Below are positions 42,301-62,928 of a stretch of DNA of 64,000 nucleotides, piece by piece. The notes beneath the pieces are model-generated. The model was given only the letters and a program-made list of their open reading frames with translations, searched no databases and was not told the DNA's origin. Where the stretch lies: assembly GCF_018977255.1 (NCBI RefSeq), contig NW_024704747.1:18104001-18168000 (forward strand). Reading direction: 5' to 3'. Source of the stretch: Callorhinchus milii. Taxonomy: Eukaryota. Both the position numbers and the translations under genes were made by a program. Position 1 is the stretch's first letter. Every line of letters starts with the position of its first letter.

Positions 42301-45300
42301 CCAGGGACCTCATGGGCCTGAGGGCGATCCAGGGCTGACCGTAAGTACTCCGGCCGACAGTATGTTAGTTGTTAGCCTGGGTCACTTGGTAGGACTCTCG
42401 CTTCTGAGTCAGAAGGTTGTAGGTTCTAGCCCCACGTCAGGGCTTTGAGGTCATACAGTCTAGGCTAACTCTTCAGTGCAATCCTGCAGGAGCGTTGCAT
42501 TTAGAAAGTGCTGTCCTTCAGATGAGACGTTAAACCGAGGTCCCATCTGCCTACTCAGGTGGACATTAAAGCTCCCATGGGACTATTTAAAAATGGAAGG
42601 GAGTTTTTCCTGGTATGCTGGCCAACAATCCCCCAGATAAAATTGGTCACTCACTTTATGGCTGTTTGTGGGACATTGCCATATGGAAATTCGCTGGATT
42701 CTTCACCTGCTATAATATATCTTGCTGCTTGTCCACCTCGGACTACCCTACTCATCAGGGCTTTGGTTTGCAGGTTTAATGGGAGCTGAGTGGGAAAAGT
42801 CCCTGCCCCAGTAACTAGTCTACCCTTCCAAGTCCTGTCTATGAGCCAGACTGGCTGTGCTGTCAACAGCAGTACCCTGGAGTATTGCAGCCTGCCTGGC
42901 TTGGGAACTGGAAACCGCCACAGAGGGTTGGTTTGATTCTGATGTTCCCTTGCTAAAACTGTCACTTTGGAGCCAGTGCAGCTCCAAGGAGATCCTGCTT
43001 ACCTCCGCGCCCCCCCCCCCCCCCCCCCCCACACCATCACCGTTCCCCCAAGGAGGATAGTCATTAGTTGGCCATTTGACCTCTCACGTCTTCCTGCGAG
43101 CTTCCTGGTGGGCAGCACAGCTCAGCATGAAATGCATGAAAGCATTGCCACCATCTTCCTGTCCGCAGCTCAGACACGTCTCTTCCCATTGAGCGATGGT
43201 TCCCACCAGTTGGCAGTACAATAATGCATAATTAGTACCCTTTGCAGTAAATCCTGTGAAGCGCTTTGAGGCATCTTCCAGATGTGAAAGTCCCTGTATC
43301 AAAGGCAAATATTTATTTATTAGTTAATTTATTCTTACTGTTCTGTTGTTCCCAGTAGTCTGGTTTGCAGATCAATTAAACATGTTTACGGCTTCTCATA
43401 TGTGTCAGACGTCCTGCTGATCAAACAAACAACTGAGCCATTCTTGACCTTTATGTTGAGCTGAGCCTTAGTGGACATTCTGTGCTCTCCTGGCCATCCA
43501 GTCCAATGATCCTGACCCAACATTTGTTTAACTCATCTTCTAGGACTGTGATGTGATGAATTACGTCAGGGAGACCTGTGGATGCTGTGGTGAGTGCCCA
43601 ACTTCCTCCTGGGTATCCTGCTTTATATTTAGAGTTGCTGCTTTTTGGCACGTTGACAGATAATATTGATAATAATCCCTGACTATAAAAATATCCGCCC
43701 TCTGGGTGGCGAGGTCATTGCCAACATCACTTTCCACACACAGCGACCAGCACATTTGCAGCACACAGGAAGTGATGTTCATGGTGGCCTTGTGACTCAG
43801 AAGTCAACCATTTTGTAGTTCGAAGAAATTTTTAAAAAGTATGTTTGATGGCAGGAATTTATTCCCAATTATTGCCCAATTTTTCTTACCATTTAAAATC
43901 GGAATCCCTTGTTACATTGGCCTCCTCATCAAATGTTCCCACAAAGCCAATGTTAATTATATGCTCAGCTTGTTGTTGTTTGTGGTACTGGCAGGCTCAG
44001 ATTGTTGGCTGTGTCGTCTCCGTAGCATTCACTTCACTGTTAAATAGTCTCAAAGGTCTTCAAGGTCTTTCTTTCATGTGAAAGGTGCTTTGTGAATGTA
44101 AATTGTTGCAGTTGTTTTTGAATATTTTAAACATGGTTGGAAGGGAGGCTTTGTTTAGAGACTAAGTTACCCATAGGTTCACAAGATTGGTTCAGATGCA
44201 GAGGCCCTTCAGACCATCTGATCTCATCCGTCCAGAATACCCAAACTGCTATATCAAATCCAAAGATGATTAATTATATGAATGATATTAATTATTGCCA
44301 TTAATATTAATCATTCCTTTTCCGCCTCCCCATTTATTTCAGATTGTGAGAAGAAATGTGGGCCCCTGGACATTGTCTTTGTGATTGACAGCTCGGAGAG
44401 TATCGGACTGACCAACTTCACTCTGGAGAAGAACTTTGTCATCAACACAGTCAGTCGACTTGGCAGCTTAGCAAAGGACCCCAAATCTCCAACAGGTCAG
44501 TGAATTAGCCAGTGAATTAGACCCACTCACCGCTATTTATGAGGAGTCCTAAGACCCACCATGGGACAAACCTCTGATTCAGCTCATTAAAGGCATCGAG
44601 CTCTTCTGTACTATAGTTTTATTATTAGTACACACTTTAGCCTTGATATTCCACCCAGTTTTACACCTTTTATCTTGCCCTTTAAAATGTAAGGCTATTT
44701 ATCCACTTTTCTAGGTTTTGTCACTTGTTCACTATTGTTTAGTGAAGGAGTTATGTCTTTCACATTTGTAAACCATGTGTCAGCTACTCTGATGATCTGG
44801 TGGGTAAAGTAAGTGCCAATGCAGTACTGGGCATGCAGCTCGGGACGTCACACATGCCTATGAAAGACACACTTAGTTATTGTGGTGCACTCCTGCCCTA
44901 TGTATGGCACCAATGAATGGCAGGTGGTCGAACCCTGAGGGGCAGCAACCCCACCCAATTCATCCCTTTGGTGCCCTTCATAGTGCGTCTCTCTCACTTT
45001 TCAAGCTTTGAGCAGTGTGTCAGCCCTGTGTGTGGCACATAGCCCCCCCCCTCACACCCACTGCCACCCATAACCACCACTCCACCCTGCCACCACACAC
45101 ACACACACACACACACATACACATGCACAGCCTACTGACAACGTCTCTGGGCTGGTGCTGCCTACTGTTGGGTGTAACATCTCTTCGGTATTTGCTTTTG
45201 CCAGTGACTTTGTCTGACCTTGGCTTTTCCCCTGTGGGGGTGTTGGGTGGGTGTGGATGTTAAATTGCAGGAGCTCGTGTTGGCGTGGTTCAGTACAGCC

Positions 45301-48300
45301 ACAACGGCACGTTCCAAGCCGTGCACCTCAACGACTCCAGGATCAACTCGCTCTCCGCATTCAAGGAAGCGGTGAAGCGGCTGGAGTGGATCGCAGGCGG
45401 CACCTGGACGCCCTCCGCCCTGAAGTTTGCCTACGACAATCTGATCAAGGCTAACCAACGTGACAAAGCCAAGGTCTTCGCTGTGGTGATCACAGACGGA
45501 CGCCATGACCCGCGGGACAACGACGCACTGCTCTCCTCCCTGTGTGGGCGTGGAATCGTCGTCAATGCCATTGGCATCGGAGACATGTTTGCCCGGGCCG
45601 AGGACGACGAAACGCTCCGTTCCATCACCTGTCACCAGGTCGACCGGGTCCAGAAGATGAGGCTGTTTGCGGACCTGGTGGCTGAGGAGTTCATTGATAA
45701 GATGGAGGAGCTACTGTGTCCAGGTAGGCAATCAATCAAACGGTATTGCTCGGCATAACGGTAGATACTCCTGGGGTCACAGGCAAGGTCCCTCTGTTGT
45801 CAGGGGGGCAAACATGTGTTCCATTATGAAGCAAGATGTTTGGCAATGTTTTATTCCTGCCATCCTTATTCTTGGGTCAGAGGACACTTCTGCCAGGGCT
45901 CTCAGTGAGGAAAATGTGCAAAGCGCACAGAAAACCTGGAATGGCCATCAATTAGGGGGTGGGAACGAGCAAGACTTTAAAAATACAAATCGGGCTCTAC
46001 AATGCGACTTGTGCTAATAGACTATTGTTCGAGGTACCTTTAAATAAGTAATTAATGAAATGTCCCTCAGAAACGAGTGTAATCTTTTCTCCATCATTCA
46101 GGGAACCCTTGTGCCCTGGAACCCTGTGAGCTCACAGTCCGCATTTTAAACACCAAACTCTTGCTGTCAGAAATGGTACTTTGTATAATATCTCATCTCC
46201 TTTGCTTGCAGACCCCAAGATTGTCTGCCCAGATCTTCCCTGTAAAACAGGTAGGTTTTGAACACCACAGTTCGATTTAATACTTGTCCCTTAAAGAGTC
46301 GGTTTTCCTCTGTAAAACTCGGATGTTATTAAAAGTAAAGCCGCTCATAAGAGTTTTGCTAGTTGTGAAACATTGAGTATTAGAAATAATGCTCGGTTGC
46401 ATGGAGGGATACAGCACAGAAATAGGCCCAACTAGTCCATGGCATTGTTTATACTCCACACAAGCTCTCACCCCTCCTAAGCCCTCTACTCTACCGCTCC
46501 GTTCCCGAAGTAAGGACAAGAGCATCAGCTGTGTCTGGTTAATTGCTGGGTTGTATGTTAATGTCTTTCTATGGTATTGCCTGTGAACAACTAAGGGCCT
46601 CACGATAGTGCAGTGCTCCCTGAGACTGTTTTGGAAGAAAGCAAATTGTACATAGTCAGTCACAACTGTGGTGTTGTGGTGTCAATTCTTAAAGGGGACT
46701 GAACACTATAATCACAGGGCATTTGTTCCTTTCCTTGGGGGCGGGGGTGGGGTTGGTGTGGGGCAGTGGGAATGGGGAATGAAGCTCCCCAATTTTCTGA
46801 CTCCTCTGGAACTTTTTCCCTCCTGTATTCGGATTTCGCTTGGAGCAGAAGTGAACAGGAAGGATATTCTATTGAGTATCAATTGAGCAAGCAATTGGTA
46901 CTATCTAGAATTCGGTGGTGGTGTGGGGGGTGAGGTGTACAAACAGTGTTGGCCTCTGGAGCTTAAGTCCCACATCAGAACATTTTTCATAACCCATTAC
47001 CCAGTTATGAAACCCATAATAATCCATTTCATAATCCATTACCCACCGGTTACTTGACTGTAAACTTTAGTCCATCAGAAATGGTTGTCTACAAACTAGA
47101 ATCCACTGCGTGGGACAGAAGGCAGACAAGGTTAAGGGGGCTTATACCCTCATTACGATGATCCAGGGGCCAAGTAAACACGTCCTCTGAGCTTTGTGCA
47201 CATCATTCAGCACAAGGAAGCTCTGAAAATCTTGTTTTATACCATAGAATCATAAGCGTACTTAAAGACAGGCCACTCAGACCTCTTGTGTCTGTACTGC
47301 TGCTCACTCCATCACTGGAGCTCTCTATTTAGTTCCTTTCCTCTGCGCTTTCTCTATTGTGTCTGTGCTGGCGAGTACATTACTTTGGAAGCCCCCACCT
47401 CTCTATTGCCAAATCCCCTCTTCATGTGATATCAATAGCACTTGTATATGAGATAATCTGCTCCCAAGCTGTCTTCAGTTGCTTCAATGCTACAATGATA
47501 TTGGAAAGCCAGGGTTTGTGTGACTACATCGCTTTGTAACATTAGGAAACACATTGAACGTGAGGGGAGCACATGGGACATTATGTATTAAGCTTCCAAG
47601 GTCTACCCAAGAACCTTTCTCCAGCTCAGGAACATTTAAGATACCAGCATGGTATGATGAGAAATAATTGAGGGTCAGTCAAGCTACTGAGCCAGGAAGA
47701 GCTGTCAACTCTTAGAGAATCCCCATCCTAAGGAAAACCTGCAAGATTGGACAGCCGGTTGGAACCAGTGGTGAGCAGTTGCGTTCATTTGTGATACAGA
47801 TTCTGGATGATGATGATGATGATGTGCAATTCATATCAGAATCCTTCTTCCTGCTTATTCCCCCTCAGCCAAGAGGGAAAGGTACCATAGACAGGCAAAC
47901 CCTCTTAGTCCACTGGGGGATTGACACCTCCTTGATCTAAAAGAGATAGAAAAATGGACAGATATACTCACAGAATAAAGGGAATGAGGTACATGGGCTG
48001 AGGTACCTTCTTGAATCACCAGAACTTGGAGTTGATGGATATATAAATCTCTTGGAGTGAAAGCACATATATCCTTGGAACACCAGTAAAGTGGATTCAA
48101 TAAAAGAATATACAACCTAGGGACCAACAGAGATGTGGCTGATATACCCTTTACAGTGAACATCACAGATGTGTTGATACTCCCGGCCGAACTGAGACGA
48201 GAATATAATGGATGGATATTCTCAGCGTGTGACAGAAATGGTAGTGGACGATATAAATCCACTACTCCATCTGGAGATAGCTGAGGTGGACCAATTTCCC

Positions 48301-51300
48301 TGGAAATCCATTGGCTTTAATCTCCTGGATTGCCATGGGGATGAAGGCCATGTGCAGGTGGGGCAGCACCGACAACACCCCAGGAGTTCCCTGCAAGCCA
48401 CAGAGTGTTGCTGCCTTTCAAATGATGCAGCTGGGAGACCAGAATAGAGTGTGTGTGTACCGAACAGACACAATCAGGTGATTGCACCTCTGTATGCATG
48501 AAGGAGTCTGAATCACGAGAGGCTTTGTGGGTCTTGAGCAAGAGACATCAGAAAAGTTACCACAGGGATGCCTGGCTTCTAATGGCTGTGCATATTTTAA
48601 TCCTTCAATGCCAGTTTCTCCTATCATTTGTGAATTCACCAAGGTTGGATTGTTTACCCATTAATAGAGAATGTGAGCTGAACTCAGTCTGTCGTGGGAC
48701 AGCATAGCTTTACTTTGCTGCGGATGTGCTGTTGTAAAAGGATCCCGTATTAATAAATAGGGAACTCCAGATGTGGTGTACACAACCTATAGAGCTTTGC
48801 TCCGATGCCCATCTGAGCTCCGGCTTGCATGAAGTTGACGACTCAAAGAGTCTGCCCTGATATGTTAGGTACAAATCCTTTTGCAAATCTCACAAGTTAA
48901 ACCCCAGTGGCACTGGGAAACTGAACTTTTCTATGTTCAAGTATTCCTCAAGCAAGAATTCATTCAATACTGGGGTAATTTACCCATGTAAAATGGAGGC
49001 AGTAGAAGCTGTGGGGACTGAGGTCTGTGTTTTCTTGGAGCTGTATCAGCTGCTAGTGCACATGAAGGGGAGAAACGGGCAATACGATACACTTAGAACG
49101 TTGCACAAGATGGCAGTGGGTACATGATCTCATCGTGTGTTCCTCATGCGAGCTGTGTACGAGTTACACCAGTGTTACCACTATGCAAACGTCTATTACT
49201 GAGTTGAGGAAATGCAGACAGTAAAGGGAGCGTTAGGCTCTGTACAGAGGAAACTGCCCTAAAGGGGAAAAATTCCACCTGGGTCAATGTTTTCTCAGCA
49301 TTTTGAAGCATGCAGAGTTTGGAAAATTCTTAAATCCAGTCATTAATTAAGTTAGCTTTCTGCAGGCTCTTTTCAAATCTCCACACAAAGTTTGAATTTA
49401 GGAGTTGGCCAATTTTCTGCACGCTGAAATACTAAAAGAAATATTGTGAGTCTAGCCTGGGTGGAAATTTCCCCTGGCCTTTGCACTATTAAAACTGACT
49501 TGTTTGAGACACTACCCTGTGCTTTATAAATACATGTTGTTGTTGTTGATGCTCCACACGTCTAAGGCCGATTTTAGAAAGGACCCAAATCCTCAAAGAC
49601 TGCGTACGCTGAGCCACGCACTGTACTGAAGTGAGGGGAGAATATAATAATATTAGTCCTTGCATTTGAATCTGTGCCTTTCACATGACGAAGATGTCTC
49701 AAACTGCTTCACAAGATTTACCAAAAAGTGTATTTTGCAGGCAAATGCAGGGGCCAATTGGTGCATGGTAATGTCTCACAAATAGCCATTTTATACAGCA
49801 ATAGATCAGCCATGATCCTATACAATAACAAAACCTGCTCGAGAGGCTGAATGGCCTACTTATGTTCCTAACAACAGCAACTTGCATTTATATAGCGCTC
49901 TTTCCGTGCCTCGGAGCGCTTAACAGCAGTGTGGCTTGATGCCGAGCCAAAAGGGAGTGGGGTAGGTGACCGAAAGCTCAGTTGAAGAGAAAAGCCTTCA
50001 GGTGTGATTTGAAGATGGCAGAGAGGGGGCAAGGCAGATTGGGAACATAGTGGCTGAAAGCACAGCAGCCAATTGTGCAGCAGAGGGGTCGAGGAACGTG
50101 CAGCAGGCCCGTGTCAGCTGAACAAGGGTAGAGGAGTGGGGTGTGAACAGATTGGAGAGGTAGGGAGGTGCCAGGGCGTGAAGAGATTTGAAAGTGAGGA
50201 TCTTGAAATCGATCCGTTCTGCAAGAACTGAGATGATGGGTGTGCGGAACCAGGTCCGGGTGAGGACACAAGTGGCAGAGTTTAGGAACTGAGCTTCTGA
50301 ATGATCTGGGGGATTCTTGGCCAGAACACTTGGAGAAACTCCCTTCTCTTTAAGAATAGCGTTGCGACATCTTTAACGGCCACCTGAAGAGGCAGACAGA
50401 TTCAACGTCTCGTCTGAAGGCTGGCAGCTCGGACAATGCAATGCTCCCCCCAGAATTGTATTGGAGCATCAGCCAGAATTATATGAGTTCAAAACCCAAT
50501 GTGGGGCTTGAACCCACAACCTCTGACTCGGAGTCAGAAGTGCTACCAGTAAGCCGACTGAGACCTGTTGTATGCACTGTGCCTGGATGAGCTTTGCATC
50601 AGGACATCTCTGCTGCCTGCGATTTGTCTTTCACAAGGAACCCCTGCGGGCTAACAAGGGAGTGAGTCAGTGTTAAGATCTGTTTGGAGACCAGTCAGTG
50701 TTAGTGAGGCTAAACTCTTCTCTTTAATCGTTTACAGATATCATAGATTCTAATGCTGCGTACTCCGACTTGCTACCTTTACCGTCACTTGGGATGCACA
50801 CCTATTACCCCTATCCCACAATTTGGCAATTTTTAACAACACTGCGAAACAAGCAGGAATCGCAACTTATCCCGGACACAGACATCTTCCCCAAACTGGT
50901 GGCAAGCATGGCTTACGTAGCTGACAAAGCTAAGTTCACCACTGGAGATGAACGGGAGAAATGGACCAAATTGCTCATAGATATTTTTAAGCTGGTTTAC
51001 AATGATATAACTGGAGATACTGCAAAAGCCATGGGGATCTGTTAGAGAATGTCAGCGGGGCGGTCTCTGGGAGGTTAACCTGACCCCTTGCTAGGTGCCC
51101 GGTTAATTTGTAGTCACCAGCTTCTCACTCATATTTAACGGCAGGGTTATATTTTGTGGAATTTTCTTAGAAAATCCAGACATCAGTGACGCGGGAATGT
51201 TGTTCCAGCTCATTGTATTTTTGGAGTTTGTTTGCCACCCCCCATTCCTCCCCCCCAGCTAGGTGATGTACACCAGGTCACCAGAAAGAGCCCTGATTCA

Positions 51301-54300
51301 GATTGCCTAAATCCCGTTAAGAAATAGCGCAAATTGACCCTGGTGTATCTGTGCTATTGAAGCGGGTCGATGCACCCGTCTTTTTAAAAATGGGCCCATT
51401 ATAGACTTCAAGCAGCCTTCTGCGGTGTGGCTTTGAGTCCTGAATGGTTGGCTCAAGGGGTCGGCTGGATGAGAGCCTAGCGCATGGTGAATTTTCAATG
51501 GCTTGGATGCAGTCATGCTGGGAATAACCACTTTTGTACCTTGTAAGTCAATTGGTTTCCACATGACTGATATTAGACTGACCTTAGCAATGTATGGAGC
51601 AAATTCTGTGCTGGATTGCATGCACCTCAGCACCTCTCCGAACTTCCACTGGACAGAATAGCCTGTATAATCCTTTGGGTAACGCACATTTCTCTTTGCC
51701 TTTCCGGTGTTTGAACATGTACGCCGATTGTATTTTGCTTAATAATAAACACTACACTTGACCGCCAGAGATTAGCTGTGTCTCAATAGTGATGGGTGGG
51801 AAGGGTGAAATGGGAATAAGGAGCTGCCTTTATCTTAAAATTTTAAATCCCGTGAAAATGGGGGAAATGCTCAATCTCAGTCCTGATCCGTTAAGATATC
51901 TATCTGCAGTTCTTAAAAAGAAACTGGCTGCCAAATGAAAACAACAACTTGCATTTATATAGCGTTCTTCACCAGGGTAGTGTCTTGGAGCGCTTAATTA
52001 GGATTGAATTTGAGAAACCTTTCACATTTCCACAGGAATACAAATTTTAAGATAAAATGGTCATACAAGCTAAGAGTAGATGTAATTACAGTCGTAGGAT
52101 GTCCTACAGTCCCCAAGTGCTTTGGGATGCTACCCTGCATGAGGGGTGCTATATAAATGCAAGTTGTTGTTAAGATATGCCCTCTTTCCCCCCTGTACTT
52201 CTTCTCCACCCACATGGCCATTGCTTGAAGCTATTTCACTGTTATTGGGTGTCCCCATTTCCATGTGGGCTGAGTAGAGAGATGGCAGCTTTGCCGATCT
52301 GCACCACACCTGCCCTGCAATAAAACATTTCATTTTGTGTTCTCTCCCTCACTTCCCCCCCACCTCCAAATCCTCTGACCTGCTGTTAGGAGAGCAGGTC
52401 AGGGGTAATACCCCAATACTGGGCGATGGCGGGAGAGGCGGTTTCACTTCTTCCAGAGACACTTTCAAAAAGAAAATCTAGGAAGAAAAACTTACGTTTT
52501 TGTAGAATTTTATTGCATTGAAATGTCTCAAACATGCGTTTTTTAGCTGGTTAGACTTGAGCTGTATCCCAACGCACACTCTGGGGTCCCCAAGCCTTGG
52601 CCCGTCCAGAATTAGCTAAGCAGGATACATCCCTCCCGGGAGAGAGTGCATATTCCATTCCAATAAATGTCTCAGGGAATTTTCATGTGTAGGGGAATGC
52701 ATGGAGCTCTGTTTTGGAGCACAAGGGGAAACTCCCTTCTCGTTTCCAAATAGCGTGATGGGATAGTTTAACATCCATCTGAAGAACAGACATCATCTTA
52801 AATATATCAGCTCAGAAGATGGCGGTCTGATGAACAAACAGATGGTCCACTCCTGCCTGAATTTGTGACTGTTGTTATAGATTCCCCTCCTATCTGTTCC
52901 ACATCCACATGATGTACTTCTTCCCACTCAGCTGCAAAGATCAGAACAATGTGGGCAGTAAGGAAAATGGAGGGGCAGGTCAAGCTACCTGAAGAGATCC
53001 AGTTTTTATTATTAATAATAACAATAATCCATGCCATTGAGATGTCTCAGAGCACTTCACAGATTTTTTTTAATGCTGTGACTGTATTTGTAAGTGAACC
53101 CAGCAGCCAATTTGCACAAAGAAAACACTCCGCAAACAGGCATGAAGCGAGTGAGTGGCCAAATGACTAACCCAGAGATTTTATTGCTGAGGAATGCTCG
53201 AATCCGCCAAAATATTTATAGAGAGACTGAGTTCACGTGTTTAACTATTAATCCGCAGGAACTAGCGTGAACCTGCACTGAGTGCTCTTGTCTGCTCCTT
53301 CTCCTTACCCCATGACCAAATTCCATAACACACCCATTAGGGTTGTGCTGCTGCATCCCTGATGTGTCTGTATCTGCACACTTTCCTGCTGAAGGTTGGA
53401 GAAGGGTGAAGGCCAGTCACCAGAGGCTGCGCTCGTTCTGAAACTGTTTGCAGAAGAAAACAAGAGAATGCAATGTTTAAATCTGTCAGATGCTTCTCCT
53501 GCGTGACATTCAAACCTTTTTCTTTCTACGATAGCAGCAGCCAGGAAGAGATGTGCTGTCAAGGCAAGAGCCCATATAAAGCAGGTCTTATCCAGAGACT
53601 ATTTGTGGCTTTTATTCACCAGAGAGAGGAGTTGGGATCAGCAGTCAATCCAGCTTGGGAGTGTGATTTGGGTTTGAGGTGGGGTGGAGATGAATGATGT
53701 CCACAGTCGGAGCAGGACTTTAGACCTCCATTAGACTGAGCCTCATCTACCAACCTATCCCACTCGCCGGTAACACTTCGTGCTGGGCTGAGGGGATTCC
53801 AGCACTCAGCTTACTGGGTCAGAGACTCCCAACGGAGGCCAGAAATTCCACGCAGTCTCAGCTCACGAGACTACTGTCCTAAAGTTGAAGTTGTCCAGGA
53901 ATGTGGACATGCTTCAATTCAATCTAAATTTAGAAACCGCTTCGTTTTAAAACCTGTGGAAAACTGGCTTCCAAACTAAGACTGGCTTTAAGATTGTTTT
54001 GGCTGATCTGCTGACTCTTAAATTTGAAGTCAAAATGATCCCTCAGGCTATAGTGGAAGTTTGGGCCTCTCGTGAGCTGGCTGGAGGTGTTGACGATGAA
54101 CGGGCCAGAATTTGAGACTATTTAAATGGCGTGGAATTAGTGCTTGGGAGCAGATGCTTATGAAGCGTTAAGGTTTTTGCTGGACGTGTGCCCGGAGCTG
54201 GCTCTGGAAATGGTGTCGGCGTTTACTCAACAAACCAAAACCTGATCCCAGTACTTTTCCAAAAACAAGTCGATCGATCTGTCCGTGAATTGTTGTCCAG

Positions 54301-56307
54301 CTCATTCCTTTCTCGCTACCTCCCCAGTGTCTGGCCTGCTGGCTGTCTCTTTGCCTTGTGCCCTGCTGACTGCAGTGTGCAGAGCTCAGTCCGTGCCAAG
54401 GAAAAACTGCAGAGGCTCGCAAGGTTCATACACAGCTGCTCTGGACCGCTCTGCCCTGCTGTGCTTTATACACTCGCGCTGAGCTCCGCCATTAGTCATG
54501 ATGGTCGGTTCACCATTGGCAGCTCAGACAGCCGGGGTGGGAGTGATCCCCATAGATTGAACTTCACAACATCTGGCAAGATATTTATGGGGCATCACTT
54601 TCTCACTCACGCATTCACTCTTGGTTTTCGCTCGTTCTCTCTCACACACACTCCTTCACCTCTTTCAATCACTCTCTCTCACACACACACGCACACTTTC
54701 TCTCTGTCCTTCTCTCTGAGGCCAGAATAAATGCTAGCACACAACTTTTTTGTAAATGAAAGGTAGAGTACTTCAACAAGCTCCTGTGATGGAGAGGCAT
54801 TGCCTTGTGAGCTCTGTCTGTCCTGCAGCACAGCCTTTACTGGTGACAGGACTTGCTCACACAGGAGATGAGGCTCCTGCAGAAGGTTACTGACAGGCAG
54901 GAGCATCAGAACAGATCTTAGAGGTTTTCCATTCAAAATTACACAGAGTTTGGAATTTATTGCCTCAGGTGACTGGGTGAATAAAATCATTGAAGGGGAA
55001 CTGGATAAGCAGTGGAGCAGTAAAAACATTGCGTAATTTGTAGGTGAGGCTAATTTGTGCACAGCGGTTTACCACAAGCAACAACAACAAAATTACATTT
55101 GTATAGAGCCTTTCATGTCGGAAGGATGTCCCAAGTAGTGCTGTGGGATATTTAAAGTCCAGGCATAGACACAATCTTGGTTTATTGTGTTACCCATAGG
55201 ACCGCACCTAATAATCTTTGCATCTGAGACGTCTCAAAGCGCTTCACAGGATATACTGTAAAGTGAATTGATTGTATATTTTGTGGGCGAAACTCAGCAA
55301 CCAATTTCACACATCAGTGTCCCACAAACAGTCATGGATTGAGTGACCAATTTATTTATTTATTTATTTTGAAGGAATTATTACCCCTGTAAACAGAAGC
55401 GTGTGGAGTAAGGAAACTTGCCCAACATTTTGCTTGCTGAGAATAGAACCCAGGTCTCTCGCTTGCGAGGCGAGTGCTCTAACCACTGAGTTACAGGACT
55501 CCACCTCTGACAATGCAGTGCTCCCCCAGCTCAGACCGTGAGCTCAAAGTGGGGCTTCGACTCACATCCTTCTGACTCTGAGGGAATGAGAACGCTGCTG
55601 ACTGAGCCAGGCTGACACCTGCTGTCTGGCTTTCTCACTCTCTCTCTCTCTCTCTCTCTCTCCGCCTGTGTTTATTTTCTGTGTCTTCAGAGCTCGCGGT
55701 GTCAGAGTGCACGCAGCGGCCGGTGGACGTGGTGTTCCTGGTGGACGGCTCGGAGAGGATGGGTCAGGGCGGTTTCACGCAGGTGCAGGAGTTTCTGGAG
55801 AAAATGTCGAGCAGGCTCATCCTGGCGGACAGGCACAATGATCCCTCCAGCGCCCGCCTGGCCTTGTTGCAGTACGGCGGCGACAATGAGCAGGAGCTGG
55901 CCTTCGGGCTGAGCTACAACCTCACCCTCATCGCCAATGGCATCACCCAGATGAAGTACATGGACTCTGCCTCCAATGTGGGCTCGGCCATCATCTACGC
56001 CATCCACAATGTGGTGCAGAGGCCAGGCAGGTTTGCGATCCAGGGCGCCCGCAAGAATGCAGAGCTCTCCTTCGTCTTCATCACCGACGGTACCAGCGGC
56101 CAGAAGAGCCTGGTAGAGGCGGTGAGCGCCATGAGGAAGCACAATGTGGTGCCCACGGTCATCGCGGTGGGCAAGAACACGGAGATGGACATGGATATCC
56201 TGCTCCAGATCACCCTGGGGGAGATGGCAGCGATTTATCGAGCCGAGGATTATTCCCACATTCTACACTCCACCTTCTTCGAAAGGTTCCTCAAGTGGAT
56301 CTGTTAA
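21233..56307 (+). CDS. col6a2: Collagen type VI alpha-2 chain (whole spliced CDS span, ~1028 aa, 28 coding exons)
   Basis: N1 vWA ([10 protein letters not shown]...[16 protein letters not shown]), Gly-X-Y exons, [20 protein letters not shown]1 (DSSESIG...[13 protein letters not shown]) and C2 ending FLKWIC all match recalled human COL6A2. Most exon sizes match human (21, 66, 54, 45, 27, 27, 45, 54, 63...46, 153, 453, 39). Confidence 0.97.
21414..21808 (-). mobile_element. Deu-SINE copy in col6a2 intron 2
   Basis: Near full-length reverse-complement copy with (AAT)n tail. Confidence 0.75.
21993..22597 (+). CDS. col6a2: col6a2 exon 3, N1 vWA domain
   Basis: TTCCAG|CG AAG CCT GAT TGC (A)[17 protein letters not shown]...RIIKVM|GTGAGT; 605 nt. 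Confidence 0.97.
23199..23670. mobile_element. MITE-like inverted-repeat element with nested Penelope-like fragment
   Basis: Outer arms ~23199-23305 and ~23556-23670 are reverse complements. The inner insert ~23326-23537 is flanked by a 15-bp duplication TATGTTGA(A/C)TTTGGA. Confidence 0.7.
24773..24793 (+). CDS. col6a2: col6a2 exon 4 (21 nt, QTKAFNN)
   Basis: TTGTTTCAG|...|GTAAGT; same size as human exon 4 (KHEAYGE). Confidence 0.88.
24947..25260 (+). mobile_element. SINE family 2, best full-length copy
   Basis: GGAGTCCTGTAGCTCAGTGGTTAGAGCACTCGCTTTGCAAG...GAGTTCAATTCC tRNA-like head; tail GCTATATCAAATGCAAGG(ATT)n. Confidence 0.8.
25497..26010 (+). repeat. Unclassified ~500-bp interspersed repeat
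   Basis: Homologous segments at ~63255-63710 (+), ~42720-42990 (+), ~32170-32440 (-), ~52540-52700 (-). Confidence 0.65.
26331..26396 (+). CDS. col6a2: col6a2 exon 5 ([22 protein letters not shown])
   Basis: TTTCAG|...|GTAAGA; 66 nt; start of the triple helix. Confidence 0.96.
26896..27918 (+). mobile_element. 5'-truncated L2-clade LINE (degenerate reverse transcriptase)
   Basis: GVPQGSIL...LFLVYMLPL...[11 protein letters not shown] motifs with frameshifts; 3' end GGGCGCTATATATAAGTTATTGTTG. Confidence 0.9.
27982..28035 (+). CDS. col6a2: col6a2 exon 6 ([18 protein letters not shown])
   Basis: AG/GT boundaries, 54 nt Gly-X-Y. Confidence 0.95.
28127..28171 (+). CDS. col6a2: col6a2 exon 7 ([15 protein letters not shown])
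   Basis: 45 nt; identical to the recalled human peptide. Confidence 0.97.
28410..28620 (+). mobile_element. CR1-clade LINE 3' fragment
   Basis: AGGACACAGGCTTAGAG...AGGGTAATTAACGACTGGAACAGGTTACCAGG, typical of a CR1 ORF2 end. Confidence 0.55.
28633..28706. repeat. Near-perfect 34-bp inverted repeat (hairpin)
   Basis: 28633-28666 pairs with 28673-28706; 6-nt loop, one G-U and one G-G. Confidence 0.9.
28920..28946 (+). CDS. col6a2: col6a2 exon 8 (GFRGMKGEK)
   Basis: 27 nt, AG/GT. Confidence 0.94.
29542..29568 (+). CDS. col6a2: col6a2 exon 9 (GELGTEGKK)
   Basis: 27 nt, AG/GT. Confidence 0.94.
29659..29703 (+). CDS. col6a2: col6a2 exon 10 ([15 protein letters not shown])
   Basis: 45 nt, AG/GT. 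Confidence 0.94.
30281..30334 (+). CDS. col6a2: col6a2 exon 11 ([18 protein letters not shown])
   Basis: 54 nt; contains the conserved helical Cys used in collagen VI dimer assembly. Confidence 0.96.
31346..31408 (+). CDS. col6a2: col6a2 exon 12 ([21 protein letters not shown])
   Basis: 63 nt, AG/GT. Confidence 0.94.
31822..31884 (+). CDS. col6a2: col6a2 exon 13 ([21 protein letters not shown])
   Basis: 63 nt, AG/GT. Confidence 0.94.
32604..32657 (+). CDS. col6a2: col6a2 exon 14a ([18 protein letters not shown])
   Basis: 54 nt, AG/GT; first part of the human 90-nt exon 14 equivalent. Confidence 0.93.
32722..32934. mobile_element. MITE-like inverted-repeat element (GAAATTCCAC family)
   Basis: CAGCCTTAACCTGTAAGACCA pairs with TGGTCTTACAGTTTAAGACTG; TTAAATTTTAAGATCACGCA pairs with TGCGTAATCTTAAATTTTAA. 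Confidence 0.6.
33010..33305 (-). mobile_element. CR1-clade LINE 3' fragment
   Basis: Reverse complement of the CR1 3' end seen at 28410-28620; a similar copy lies at ~38930-39190. Confidence 0.55.
33938..33973 (+). CDS. col6a2: col6a2 exon 14b ([12 protein letters not shown])
   Basis: 36 nt; TCTCCACAG|...|GTAAGT. Confidence 0.93.
34107..34510 (+). mobile_element. Deu-SINE, near full length
   Basis: GTCAGCCTGGCTCAGTTGGTAGCAC head, Deu core, ATT tail. Confidence 0.75.
36188..36250 (+). CDS. col6a2: col6a2 exon 15 ([21 protein letters not shown])
   Basis: 63 nt; contains RGD. Confidence 0.95.
36856..36918 (+). CDS. col6a2: col6a2 exon 16 ([21 protein letters not shown])
   Basis: 63 nt, AG/GT. 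Confidence 0.95.
37255..37317 (+). CDS. col6a2: col6a2 exon 17 ([21 protein letters not shown])
   Basis: 63 nt, AG/GT. Confidence 0.95.
38176..38367. mobile_element. MITE with ~35-40-bp terminal inverted repeats
   Basis: CTGAAATTCCACCCAGTCTTAGCCCGGGAGACCTATTT pairs with AAATAGCCTCACAGACTAAGACTAAGTGGAATTTCAG. Confidence 0.7.
38509..38571 (+). CDS. col6a2: col6a2 exon 18 ([21 protein letters not shown])
   Basis: 63 nt; contains RGD. Confidence 0.95.
38843..38893 (+). CDS. col6a2: col6a2 exon 19 ([17 protein letters not shown])
   Basis: 51 nt with the conserved helix interruption GFSFPG (human GFSYPG). Confidence 0.96.
39523..39558 (+). CDS. col6a2: col6a2 exon 20 ([12 protein letters not shown])
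   Basis: 36 nt, AG/GTGAGT; contains RGD. Confidence 0.94.
40016..40078 (+). CDS. col6a2: col6a2 exon 21 ([21 protein letters not shown])
   Basis: 63 nt, AG/GT. Confidence 0.95.
40597..40659 (+). CDS. col6a2: col6a2 exon 22 ([21 protein letters not shown])
   Basis: 63 nt, AG/GT. Confidence 0.95.
41520..41895 (+). mobile_element. L2-clade LINE 3' fragment
   Basis: GCCTTCAGC...CTCTGGAACTCT...CTCAAGACCTTTCTCTTTGACCG...AGCGCCTTAGGACGTCC...GGCGCTCAATAAATG...(GTT)n. Confidence 0.75.
42305..42340 (+). CDS. col6a2: col6a2 exon 23 ([12 protein letters not shown])
   Basis: 36 nt; end of the helix. Confidence 0.96.
43544..43589 (+). CDS. col6a2: col6a2 exon 24 ([15 protein letters not shown])
   Basis: 46 nt Cys-rich linker; |GTGAGT. 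Confidence 0.97.
44343..44495 (+). CDS. col6a2: col6a2 exon 25 (start of C1 vWA)
   Basis: (D)[21 protein letters not shown]...KDPKSPT(G); 153 nt. Confidence 0.97.
45094..45123 (+). repeat. (AC)n microsatellite
   Basis: Directly visible. Confidence 0.9.
45271..45723 (+). CDS. col6a2: col6a2 exon 26 (C1 vWA)
   Basis: (G)[10 protein letters not shown]...EELLCP; 453 nt. Confidence 0.97.
46212..46250 (+). CDS. col6a2: col6a2 exon 27 ((D)[12 protein letters not shown])
   Basis: 39 nt; phase-1 donor ACAG|GTAGG. Confidence 0.97.
49263..49475. mobile_element. MITE-like element (GAAATTCCAC family)
   Basis: AGGGGAAAAATTCCACC pairs with GGTGGAAATTTCCCCT. Confidence 0.5.
49870..50270 (-). mobile_element. 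L2-clade LINE 3' fragment
   Basis: Reverse-complement L2 tail (CAACAGCAACTTGCATTTATATAGCGC); minus-strand ORF ends ...AFSHYVPNL...[10 protein letters not shown]. Confidence 0.7.
50738..51045 (+). CDS. col6a2: col6a2 alternative terminal exon (2C2a-type C-terminus, 102 aa)
   Basis: Acceptor TCTTTAATCGTTTACAG|AT is in phase with exon 27. ...[52 protein letters not shown] aligns with recalled human 2C2a ...YSQLVAVLVYTAERAKFATGVERQDWMELFIDTFKLVHRDIVGDPETALALC*. Confidence 0.92.
51744..51749 (+). terminator. Candidate polyadenylation signal for the 2C2a-type isoform
   Basis: AATAAA about 700 nt after the alternative stop, ending a repeat-poor UTR-like stretch. Confidence 0.55.
55210..55502 (-). 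mobile_element. SINE family 2 copy
   Basis: Reverse complement of 24947-25260. Confidence 0.75.
55691..56307 (+). CDS. col6a2: col6a2 exon 28 (C2 vWA, canonical C-terminus)
   Basis: Acceptor TCTTCAG|AG reinforced by a (CT)n tract; (E)[22 protein letters not shown]...[10 protein letters not shown]. Confidence 0.97.
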
Positions 56308-58659: not shown

Positions 58660-59370
58660 TTACAGAATATCCATCCTGCTATCACACCATCCAGTGTCCT
58701 GGCCTCAGGCACCCTTCCTGGCAACCTGTTCCAGTCATTCGTTACCATCTGGGTAAGGAAATATGTTGGTGAGATCAGCCGTGAAATTAACCTTTACAAC
58801 TCTGACCTGTGTCCTCGTATTCAACAACAGCAACAAATTAAATTTTTATAGCGCTTTTCATGTCAGGAGGACTTCCCAAGGCACTGGACAGTGAGGGATC
58901 CACACCCAAGTTGATGGCTGGGATCAGGAAGGGTGGCGTGCAGGGAGGGTAGGGGTAGGAGGGTGACAGAAGGCACGCCGGTGGACAAGGAGGGTCTTGG
59001 AGCGGGTCTTGAAGGAAGCAAGGGAGGGAATGAGGCGGAGGGACTGTGGGATGGAGTTCCAGAGGGTGGGGACAGAGAGGCTGAAGGCCCGCCCGTTAAT
59101 GGTGGGGCGGGTAAGGCAGGGTATGTGAAACAGGCCAGAGCCCGCTGAATGGAGGGAGCGGTCAGGTTGGTAGGGGGTAAGAGATCACAGAGGTTCAAAT
59201 GCCTCTCTGAAACATTCAAATGTCTGGTGCATCAATGGTACATTGTTCTGGGTTTACACTTTCAATCCCATTTAGAATCTTATATAACCTTTTCTAAGGT
59301 CACCTCTGATGCGTCTCCTTTGAAGACTGAAGAGCCCTAACTTGTCTAATGGTAGCTCGTAGCTCATTCC
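58660..59370 (-). mobile_element. CR1 LINE 3' end interrupted by an L2 fragment (~58822-59190)
   Basis: Minus-strand peptides LDKLGLFSLQRRRIRGDL and [15 protein letters not shown] (CR1 ORF2 end) flank an L2 3' fragment. Confidence 0.7.
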
Positions 59371-61509
59371 TCTAACACTGGGGATCGTCCTACAAACAGC
59401 CACAAAATGAATGACCAATTCTATCTGAGGGATTGTTGGACAAACATCAGGACAAAATTCCCTTCTTTTTTTGAAAAGTCTCATTGGAACAGGAAGAATC
59501 AGACCTCCAACAATGCAGAACATCCCCAGCACTCCATTGGAACGTCAGCCTTAACTGTGCGTTCAGAGTCCCAACGTGGGACTTGATCTCACAATCTCTG
59601 GCTCAGAAGCGAGAGTGCAACCAATTGAGCCAGGCTGACACACAATAGTTCCAAGATTTGGAGGATGAGTGTTGGTGCCACTATGACATTTTTCTATATA
59701 ACCGCTCATTCTAATGAGCATTAAAATATACCCAACAAACTAATGGTCTCATTCAAAGGATGGTTCAGAGACATGGGATTTGAACCCACAAAATCTTCTG
59801 ACCTACAGGTGAGAGTGATACCAACTGAGCCAGATATGGGGATGGTGGTGGTGAGGAAAGTGATTGGACAGGAATGAAAGGAAAGGTAACAATGTAGGAA
59901 AATTCACAGCTAGTTGAGGACTGCTAGCTATAGTTTCACCCACAAAATATACAGTCAATTCACTTTACATTATATTTTGAGAAGTCTCAAAGACGTGATA
60001 AGGCGCTAAATCAAATGCAAGGATTATTATTATTATTATTATTATAATAGGAAGTCAATTAATTCAGGGGCTTTCCTTGTAACCGAAAGGGACATGTGTT
60101 TCTGTTGTTTTGGAACTGGTCAACCCAATACCCCAGGCGAAACTCCTTTGATTTTGACCACCAAAAGCTTATTTAATTATTGTTTCAAAAGAAATAGGAC
60201 AACAGATGTAGAGATATTTGCAATCTGATTTAATGACATCAACACACAGCAGAAGTCATTGTGTTAAACCTTTATAGCCTTTGAAACATATAATGCTGTG
60301 CAATACTCACTGCTATAATCTCAAGGCAACGTCCGGTGTGGTTTATTTTTAAGCAAATAAAAGCAATTACAGCAGAATAATAATTTCAATACAGAATTCT
60401 GCAAAAGCTACCAATTTAATTTAGTCATGAAAGATATAATAAACTGCAGAAATCCCAGTCATTGCACCAATTGCACCCCTATCTGTCTTGTGCAAAAGAC
60501 ATCTCAAGCTTGCGTTCATCAATATTTTCACTGCCCAGATGAGAAGCCCCTTGCTGTTTCCCGTTGTGATGTGGGCCCGAAGGGAATTTTGCCCCGAATC
60601 CTGCTGCAATCTGTAAAATAATAATCCTTGCATTTGATATAGCACTGTATCATGTCATTGAAATGTCTCAAAGTGCTTCACAAGATTTTACTCTGGAATG
60701 TAGTGACCATGTATTTTTTTAGGCAAACACGGCAGCTAATTTGCGCTCTGCAAAAGTCCCACAAACAGCAAGGAAGTCAATGACCAGTTTTATCTGGGGG
60801 ATTGTTAGACTGCGATTTAATTTTTCGGCCAATGGACAGCATTTCTCACATTGCAGCGTCAGCCTAGACCAGTGGTGGCCAACCCATGGCCCAGGGACAC
60901 GGAGGTGACCCGCAGACCATCAAGAAGTGGCCCCGCTGAACATTCACAGCAGTCAAGGAGATGTCGCAATCCTGCCTGTGGACACCTGACAAAAAAGAGA
61001 GTGCTTCTCCATCAGACAGACGGGGTAGTGTACATTAACCTCCAAATCTACCATTGTTTCCTTGCTAATCAAAGATGGAATCTACCACAAGCATTTGAGA
61101 AATCAAAGTGTAAAAGGCCTCCATTAAGCTTTGTGCTCATTTAAAAAAAAACACCACAACAGTGTGGATAATGTATGTGTGTGTATGTGGCCGAATTCAG
61201 GAGAGGACTCAGCTGCAGAGTTTGTATGAATGGGATAGTTTTGGAAGAGGGAAATATCATATCAACAAACCTCCCGACAACAGCATTGGAGTAGGAATGA
61301 TTCTCCTGCACAATCCAGAGCTGAGCCCCTTGTGCTGTTCCCATTTACAGGGATAGGGGCAAGAGCACCAGGCAGGGAACGGACCCACCGCTCTCCACAC
61401 TACGTGCAACACAGAGCCGAATGTCCTACAAATTGCATTGAGCTAACACAACGCATTGAGGGAAATTGGTGTCAGATCAAAATATGAATTGATGGGTAGT
61501 TTCACTCAC

Positions 61510-61861
61510 CTAATGTCCACGTCCTCCACGTCCTCCATGCCCATGGCCTCCATGCTCATGGCATCCTTGGTCATGGTCTTCATGCTCATGGCATCCTTGC
61601 CCATGGCCTCCATGCCCATGGCCTCCATGCCCATGGTCTCCATGCCCATGGCATCCTTGCCCTTGGCCTCCATGCCCATGGTCTTCATGCTCATGGCATC
61701 CTTGCCCTTGGCCTCCATGCCCATGGCCTCCATGCCCATGGCCTCCATGCCCATGGTCTCCATGCTCATGGCACCTTTCCCATGGTCTTCATGCCCATGG
61801 TCCTTACAATCTTTCGGTTGGCAATATTTTGATGGCTGAGGGCCTTTGTACACCTGCTGCT
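61510..61861 (-). CDS. Main exon of candidate His/Gly/Cys-rich repeat protein gene (1-nt frameshift as assembled)
   Basis: Acceptor TTATTTTCCTTACAG| at 61862 and donor TAG|GTGAGT at 61510/61509; encodes QQVYKGPQPSKYCQPKDCKD plus 18 x 15-nt repeats. Confidence 0.6.
61530..61800. repeat. 15-bp minisatellite, 18 units (minus-strand consensus CATGGGCATGGAGGC)
   Basis: Directly visible; one unit (~61771-61784) is 14 nt. Confidence 0.95.
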
Positions 61862-62928
61862 CTGTAAGGAAAATAACTACTGTAAATATACAGCAGACTC
61901 TGGTTACAATTGTACAAATTTGTATCACAACCTTCTCCAACAAGCTGATGGGCTGAACATAAGGCCACACACACCAAGTGCACCTATTCCCATTCACATG
62001 GGGGACATCAACAAACCCAAGCAAAGAAGAAACCAGTTTTCAGAGTGAGACCTTCTCTGAGTCATTGGGGGTGATGGTAGGGAACGTGGAAAGGGCAGGG
62101 GATTTTCAACGGAGTGTCTGACATACATGGAAACCCAGTATCGTGCTTAAGAGTCTCCAAACCAAACTGGAAATTTCCATTTGCCTAGAATGGAGAGCAC
62201 ATTCTCATCCTGGAGGGCCATACCTTGCTCAGAGCAGGGAGATGGGACTAAATGGATAGCACATTGCCAGATGGACCAAATGGACCTCTTCTGTACTGTA
62301 AAATTCTATTCTATTATTCTATGAAATGCTTCCACCTGCTAAAAGCATTGCTGCAGTCGTCATACAATGTTACTGTTGCACACCTCCCTCTACAGAGGAC
62401 TGTGGCTTGATGCTGCTCTGTGCTGGAGGCCCTGGGAAAACTCAAAAGATTTCACTGACCATCAGAGTCCCAAAATAGCCTTGTTATTGCCTTAAATTCA
62501 GTTTCCCCAGGGGTTAGATATACTCCTATTTTCTAATTATTAGATATACTTTATATCAGGACATGCAGGTTGCAAAATTTGACCAATTTTCTTTAGTTCT
62601 TCAAATAAAACCGAAGATACAGATTGAAAATTAAAGACTGTGCTTAAGAAATTCTGGAGCTCGCTTTGATCCGATGAACATGGATTGAAATCTTGTTGGC
62701 ATGAATTTCTTGTAACGGCATTACTCATGCTTCGACCTAGATTTGAGGTGATATTTCTAAAGATTCCCATCTCGTCATTGTAGGGCCAATGTGACACACC
62801 CACGACAATGAACCCTGCAGGTGTCTACAACACTTTCCAAGGTCTTTACTCTGTGTGGAGTCTCAACACATTTTTTTTGCAGGAATTAAAGGAATATAAA
62901 ATGACAATGAAAATGAATTGTTTCTTAC

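Follow-up and report, generated by a model that had tools for sequence, protein, structure and literature searches.

The alpha2(VI) chain of collagen VI, encoded by COL6A2, can end in an alternative C-terminus termed 2C2a, an isoform that dates from 1990 (Saitta et al., 1990; see PMC10049728, PMC12564197 and PMC10965357). Here, we analyse the corresponding ending, C2a, in the chimaera Callorhinchus milii, within a 64,000-nucleotide stretch of contig NW_024704747.1 (positions 18,104,001 to 18,168,000, forward strand; hereafter the window, with positions counted from its first letter), where the coding part of the 2C2a alternative last exon occupies 50738..51045 on the + strand. Like its human counterpart (NM_058174), this exon is flanked by exon 27 and the canonical last exon and has about 98-102 codons, the first for Asp and the last for Cys; a poly(A) site of its own, as in human, is probable. 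It differs from the human exon in its divergent first half and long branch. The canonical ending, the alpha2(VI) C2 vWA domain (PDB 9GTU, 9HAN; PMC12354898), occupies the corresponding position of the chain and likewise has a terminal Cys, but its fold is unrelated and it engages other collagen VI domains. In PMC12354898, where C2a is not mentioned, alpha2 C2 contacts alpha3 C1 in the monomer and the partner's alpha1 C2 in the tetramer, heterotrimerisation is attributed to a coiled coil, rich in Cys, that separates the helix from C1, and the disulfide of the dimer is suggested to use Cys of this coiled-coil region.

In human muscle, 2C2a is a minor isoform, and loss of the canonical poly(A) signal in a patient shifted the transcripts to 2C2a and led to Ullrich dystrophy (PMC10965357). 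The same study infers that 2C2a collagen reaches tetramers, is secreted and probably does not enter microfibrils; evidence that the 2C2a protein is made, assembled in heterotrimers and secreted comes from human only (PMC10965357, citing Zhang 2010). A variant affecting the 2C2a isoform has also been described in a patient, with a pathogenicity that was unclear from genetics (PMC10059973). Variants in 2C2a are hard to interpret, and we found no earlier family assignment for its tail.

The second system to be considered is FAM180 (FAM180A and FAM180B, PF15173), a family of secreted proteins that has received little study. PMC12090931 describes the function of FAM180A as "not well understood". 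In PMC6937697, PMC10164575 and PMC8914561, three of the fourteen papers that contain both COL6A2 and FAM180, it is an entry in expression lists, and it is present in gene lists from cartilage and the growth plate. In the literature searched, mostly outside subscription journals and supplements, we found neither C2a conservation in fish nor a link between C2a and FAM180, and a term search of the zebrafish collagen VI survey (PMC6934817) also returned neither. Most of what concerns the isoform and its conservation was known before: isoform X2 of Heterodontus is predicted in RefSeq, and therefore C2a conservation in a cartilaginous fish is already in databases. In contrast, the domain relationship between C2a and FAM180 is probably unreported, although databases built on structure might have placed them together already. 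The interest of this locus rests on the domain assignment and not on the exon itself. Our preferred reading, to which we give a probability of roughly 55%, is that the ancient 2C2a exon swaps C2 for a predicted module likely homologous to FAM180, which would yield a collagen VI that is secreted, probably polymerises poorly and carries a different binding surface.

The C2a exon and its conservation

The + strand of the window holds COL6A2 in full, with N1, triple-helix, coiled-coil, C1 and C2 exons collinear in tblastn searches with the human and horn-shark chains, and the downstream last exon has collagen VI alpha2 as its best PDB match (E 1e-69). Exon numbers follow the human gene. The original prediction had placed in intron 27 an in-phase terminal exon that begins with Asp and has its own AATAAA, and all of this is borne out. 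The linker exon 27 (46212..46250, + strand; 39 nucleotides, two Cys) ends G|gt at 46250 and is the shared phase-1 donor of both last exons. The C2a acceptor reads cag|AT at 50737/50738; the codon split across the joint is G+AT, and the first C2a residue is therefore Asp. This phase 1 exon continues in frame for 102 codons to a C-terminal Cys and the TAG stop at 51043-51045, and is single-copy in the 991-megabase genome. The first AATAAA/ATTAAA downstream of the stop is the AATAAA at 51744-51749, which gives a 3' untranslated region at 51046..51767 (+ strand) with likely cleavage at about 51767.

Six sequencing runs (X1 to X6), presumed to be RNA although none is on record as such, were aligned in two sets, and the splicing into 50738 that had been proposed is present in them. 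Joint 46250>50738 (GT..AG) was found in 3/4 runs (X2, X3 and X4, from two studies), with a short side of 25+4 letters that is below the 31-letter bar for bridging. Run X6 has, in place of the full joint, a loose end with 20 nucleotides of exon-27 letters, and no joint is among the rows listed for X5. These presumed-RNA runs also carry the joint between exons 26 and 27 (45723>46212, GT..AG; 4/4 runs) and the canonical joint 46250>55691 (3/4 runs). At the 3' side, contigs stop at 51766-51767 in X2, X4, X5 and X6 (4/6 runs, two studies), 17-18 nucleotides past the AATAAA, and at 51751 in X3. Contigs cannot prove an RNA end, and these stops hint only weakly at where cleavage occurs; the 2C2a transcript probably uses the upstream poly(A) site. 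A third ending of the 2C2a' type was not seen in the chimaera gene. In X1, the C2a acceptor is crossed unspliced by a contig reaching 51969, and low-depth unspliced contigs of this run extend over intron 46400-55000 and the acceptor (50505-51969); they are pre-mRNA or DNA.

The conserved part of the tail had been aligned to human 2C2a, without gaps over the last ~52 residues and with a divergent first half, and this pattern was recovered with apes and marmoset in place of human, no human-labelled 2C2a protein having been retrieved. The last 52 residues are identical to primate 2C2a at 26/52 positions, ungapped (Callithrix P0065, itself named isoform 2C2a; Pongo P0061; Gorilla P0069), and to the horn shark at 31/52, whereas the first 50 residues present just 10 identities with primates and 15 with the horn shark. 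A phmmer search of 1.84 billion representatives matched the tail to Pan paniscus isoform X2 with E 1.8e-7; with the last 59 residues as query it returned 20 matches, 18 of them C2a tails and two (P0026, P0027) unrelated repeat proteins, which were excluded from further counts. Using a profile of 14 tails, 85 proteins were recovered among 7,999 candidates scored, all vWA-bearing and COL6A2 where named, spanning horn shark, sturgeon, teleosts, frogs, reptiles, birds and mammals. Neither the phmmer nor the tail-profile searches yielded relatives in jawless fish or invertebrates, which is weak evidence of absence. After dropping 6/85 proteins without the exon-27 motif and 8 with tails outside 70-125 residues, 71 full C2a exons remained, of which 70 have the terminal Cys and 69 have exactly one Cys; six columns are invariant among 47 C2a sequences. 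In the tree, the window tail joins two other cartilaginous-type tails (support 92/92) on a long branch (0.65), the bootstrap being unsettled. The Callorhinchus exon is the 2C2a orthologue, and an ordinary one; C2a is conserved from chimaera to primates, and the 2C2a tail is under long-term constraint, in agreement with the earlier proposal of selected conservation across jawed vertebrates.

This constraint bears on the idea that the C2a exon is mainly an off-switch, in which early polyadenylation cuts polymerising collagen VI and the protein end is kept only for harmless folding, clearance or secretion. Such a role would fit the minor status of 2C2a in human muscle, where it acts as a loss of function (PMC10965357), but the 50% identity that chimaera and primates share without gaps, the six invariant columns and the near-universal terminal Cys exceed what a neutral cap would need, and the 8-residue 2C2a' end shows that a far shorter exit was available. 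We therefore hold a mere off-switch to be very improbable.

Two further observations concern the wider set of tails. The cartilaginous-type C2a tails of P0009 and P0029 are one residue longer than usual, with Cys or Tyr in the penultimate position, a rare departure from the terminal Cys. Moreover, 10/86 proteins (P0025, P0098, P0125, P0126, P0137, P0142, P0145, P0146, P0148 and P0149) continue from inside the C2a exon into further sequence, mostly canonical C2, at varied breakpoints. These read-through proteins are probably gene-model artefacts, and no such joint is among the joints listed for the window.

Probable relationship between the C2a tail and FAM180

The original prediction expected a small, probably helical domain ending in Cys. 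AlphaFold2 agrees, with helices at residues 27-42, 50-67 and 71-92 (mean predicted local distance difference test, pLDDT, 74) ahead of the C-terminal Cys; the resemblance of this tail to FAM180 had been missed. FAM180 is the only Pfam match of the window tail (E 0.068, 13.6 bits), a weak one confined to the conserved part. The same half of the profile is matched, also weakly, by 18/18 homologues (E 1.4e-5 to 0.21; best 25.5 bits), and the family is matched by 20/22 full-length C2a isoforms versus 0/5 canonical or 2C2a' controls; as these homologues are kin, the counts are not independent. In the opposite direction, a C2a profile (A1) built without any FAM180 sequence gave C. milii FAM180A a score of 28.6 bits (E 1.7e-5 at Z=177,635), and four further FAM180A proteins, from sharks, scores of 19-22 bits. 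Against the PDB, this profile matched 0/177,635 sequences at E<=10, and the FAM180 profile had no matches either. Shuffling provided a further control: with a 72-tail profile, 6,000 locally shuffled FAM180 decoys peaked at 9.9 bits, and once cartilaginous-fish tails were removed from the C2a profile, FAM180A scored 23.9 bits versus a decoy maximum of 10.1. Finally, when a non-chimaera C2a protein (P0011) was searched against the 991-megabase genome, exon 3 of FAM180A came second of 7 matches, behind the C2a exon, and the matches ranked 3-7 aligned only to an unrelated N-terminal part of the query.

The FAM180-like region delimited by the profile searches and the AlphaFold2 model comprises residues about 25-92 (50809..51012, + strand), with the three predicted helices, and its ungapped core hairpin corresponds to residues 51-92 (50887-51012, + strand). 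A pairwise comparison of C2a with FAM180A gave 11/42 identical and 27/42 similar positions without gaps, and C2a and FAM180 share Pro, Tyr, Ala, Gly, Trp, Phe and Asp in ungapped register. The FAM180A model has helices at 101-113, 120-139 and 143-165. When Trp76 of C2a is set on Trp148, the predicted C2a helices 50-67 and 71-92 coincide with the predicted FAM180A helices 120-139 and 143-165; C2a and FAM180A/FAM180B have three predicted C-terminal helices in matching register. The two systems are also alike in their extracellular setting and in encoding the module in the last exon.

Several results weigh against this relationship. Every Pfam FAM180 score, from the 13.6 bits of the window tail to the 25.5 bits of the best homologue, is under the family gathering score of 27 bits, and the tail is consequently not filed as a FAM180 member. 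The hhalign probability is 66-73%, with a FAM180 side made of five similar shark FAM180A sequences, and the second-rank genome match of P0011 to FAM180A has an E-value of 0.68. A shark-only FAM180 profile gives the C2a exon 10.6 bits, less than the 12.0 bits (E 0.02) that it gives to 58757-58891 on the + strand, a match restricted to the signal-peptide part and probably due to chance. Single-clade C2a profiles are weak as well: the reptile and bird profile reached 14.4 bits versus a decoy maximum of 13.2, and with such profiles several other shark FAM180A score under the decoy maximum. FAM180 was absent from the 20 matches of the single-sequence phmmer search, a genome-wide search with the Pfam family missed the C2a exon, and the ESM Atlas gave no C2a-FAM180 link, the look-alikes of FAM180A being FAM180 clusters only and those of the C2a tail unrelated clusters (best score 0.83, lead level only). 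The FAM180A model is of low confidence (mean pLDDT 51), and its agreement with C2a concerns helix limits. Moreover, the C2a exon is phase 1 and the last FAM180A exon phase 0.

Foldseek with the C2a model had 0 matches at E<=0.001, and a word-indexed search of the 102-residue tail against longer proteins scored 0/54 candidates. A PDB sequence search with the tail gave three weak matches to a viral envelope protein (E 0.05-0.33), located in its variable N-terminal part and attributed to chance. In a wide fold search, 525 chains were found at Z>=5; the matches are generic helical bundles, and the best of them (Z 8.2) is below the bar for helical folds.

The sub-threshold scores, the moderate hhalign probability, the searches that missed the link and the frequency of three-helix bundles could together be explained by convergence of two amphipathic helical hairpins, C2a being a conserved domain of its own. 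However, a single family of 24,736 recurs across divergent fish, frog, reptile and mammal tails, the reciprocal profile match came with no PDB false positive, the seven residue types listed above match without gaps, and both modules end a terminal exon, which makes convergence a distinctly improbable explanation. Remote homology is seen in both search directions with moderate strength, next to weak or null searches, and the conserved part of C2a is likely to be distantly homologous to the C-terminal half of FAM180.

The differences between the two systems are nevertheless considerable. C2a matches only positions about 67-137 of the 137 of PF15173, has no signal peptide, N-terminal helix or hairpin of its own, and is not a stand-alone protein but is joined to collagen VI by splicing, in another splice phase. 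Residues A56, K66, L79 and D82, invariant or nearly so in C2a, differ in FAM180A, and the Gly-Asp...Cys end (51013..51042, + strand), which holds the only Cys of the exon, is found in C2a only and lacks a FAM180 counterpart. These residues point to constraints proper to C2a. In the C. milii genome, a single FAM180 locus is above the family cut-off, the FAM180A gene (G000:C5:48398448-48415134, - strand), composed of three coding exons (residues 1-25, 26-59 and 60-166) with intron phases 1 and 0; its product is 100% identical to the C. milii protein at NCBI. FAM180 N-terminal exons were not found in the COL6A2 intron. With splice phases that differ, the data stop short of a clean transfer of a whole exon, in either direction.

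All five shark FAM180A sequences (P0002-P0006) present Arg-Leu-Lys-Arg at residues about 33-36, just past the hydrophobic N-terminus, which fits a proprotein-convertase site. This motif suggests that the shark FAM180A products may be processed and secreted.

Possible consequences for collagen VI assembly

The original prediction held that 2C2a replaces a C2 vWA domain needed for both dimer and microfibril assembly. The replacement itself stands, and so does the importance of C2 at a late stage: as the upstream coiled coil is kept in 2C2a and 2C2a collagen is reported to be secreted, C2 matters at the bead or microfibril stage, whereas a need for it in the dimer does not follow. We propose that the choice of terminal exon acts as a polyadenylation switch, in which splicing to C2a would exchange the C2 vWA domain for the predicted three-helix module. 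The trimerising coiled coil being retained, assembly would proceed through secretion, while the bead contacts of C2 with alpha3 C1 and alpha1 C2 would be lost, leading to poor polymerisation; 2C2a tetramers could then behave as weak or chain-limiting units of the microfibril. The FAM180-like helices may form a protein-binding module, perhaps with a partner common to FAM180.

This module would be displayed together with a single terminal Cys. The two Cys of vWA domains usually pair together. The canonical C2 exon has two Cys versus one in the C2a exon, where the lone Cys has no partner and is thus either free or paired outside the exon, that is, possibly cross-linked to another chain or to a binding partner.

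A FAM180-derived tail could also be a structural plug, which shields the face of alpha3 C1 exposed by the missing C2, permits folding of the chain and replaces the canonical chain in part, binding no FAM180 partner. In its favour, C2a has fixed residues that FAM180A lacks (A56, K66, L79 and D82) and a Gly-Asp...Cys end of its own, and three of the six FAM180 helices and strands are absent from it. Short microfibrils, with partial compensation by C2a, were also reportedly described by Zhang et al. in 2010. However, a three-helix bundle and a vWA domain share no fold, and muscle was not rescued by the switch to 2C2a in the patient (PMC10965357), so that we consider the plug rather unlikely. Our preferred reading, a FAM180-homologous module in a secreted and poorly polymerising collagen VI, could be carried further: early jawed vertebrates may have captured the C-terminal end of a FAM180-type secreted signalling or matrix protein as a swappable last exon of COL6A2. 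The 2C2a isoform would then be a multivalent ligand or decoy resembling FAM180, tethered to the matrix and provided with a disulfide hook, which alternative polyadenylation switches on and which shares a receptor or partner with FAM180A/B. This extension is tentative and, in our view, doubtful as a whole.

If C2a and FAM180 are homologous, each is a handle on the other, as the partners of one can be tested on the other, and the link would give both the 2C2a tail and FAM180 a first functional lead. The conserved helices would mark residues for testing 2C2a variants, and the locus would clearly illustrate how a collagen acquired a foreign exon long ago.

Other features of the window

The region shared by both isoforms includes a short exon for the coiled-coil (CXCC) trimerisation region, where the triple helix ends (43544..43588, limits approximate, + strand), with 87-93% identity to residues 591-605 of the human chain and 595-609 of the horn shark chain in tblastn; its trimerisation role is taken from PMC12354898. 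Most of the C1 vWA domain is encoded by exon 26 (45268..45723, start approximate, + strand; Pfam VWA, E 3.6e-18). The canonical last exon, which encodes the C2 vWA domain and competes with C2a as terminal exon, is located at 55691..56307 on the + strand (Pfam VWA, E 3.2e-28).

Upstream of this exon, the original prediction had noticed a longer (CT)n tract and had taken it as consistent with regulated competition between the two acceptors. The tract is confirmed as a (CT)12 microsatellite at 55638-55661 (+ strand), 30-53 nucleotides upstream of the canonical acceptor AG and the only such run in the window. It raises the pyrimidines over 37 bases to 31 at the canonical C2 acceptor versus 22 at C2a, whereas the 20 bases adjoining the AG are practically equal in content (16/20 for C2a and 15/20 for C2), leaving the argument for competition unsupported.

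On the - strand, the stretches 61506-61867 and 62540-62824 hold a short tandem repeat with several overlapping open frames, one of them His/Gly-rich, and, upstream of the repeat, a 94-codon frame. No Pfam match under E 0.07 was obtained for the repeat frames or the 94-codon frame; together, they may be part of a downstream gene on the opposite strand.

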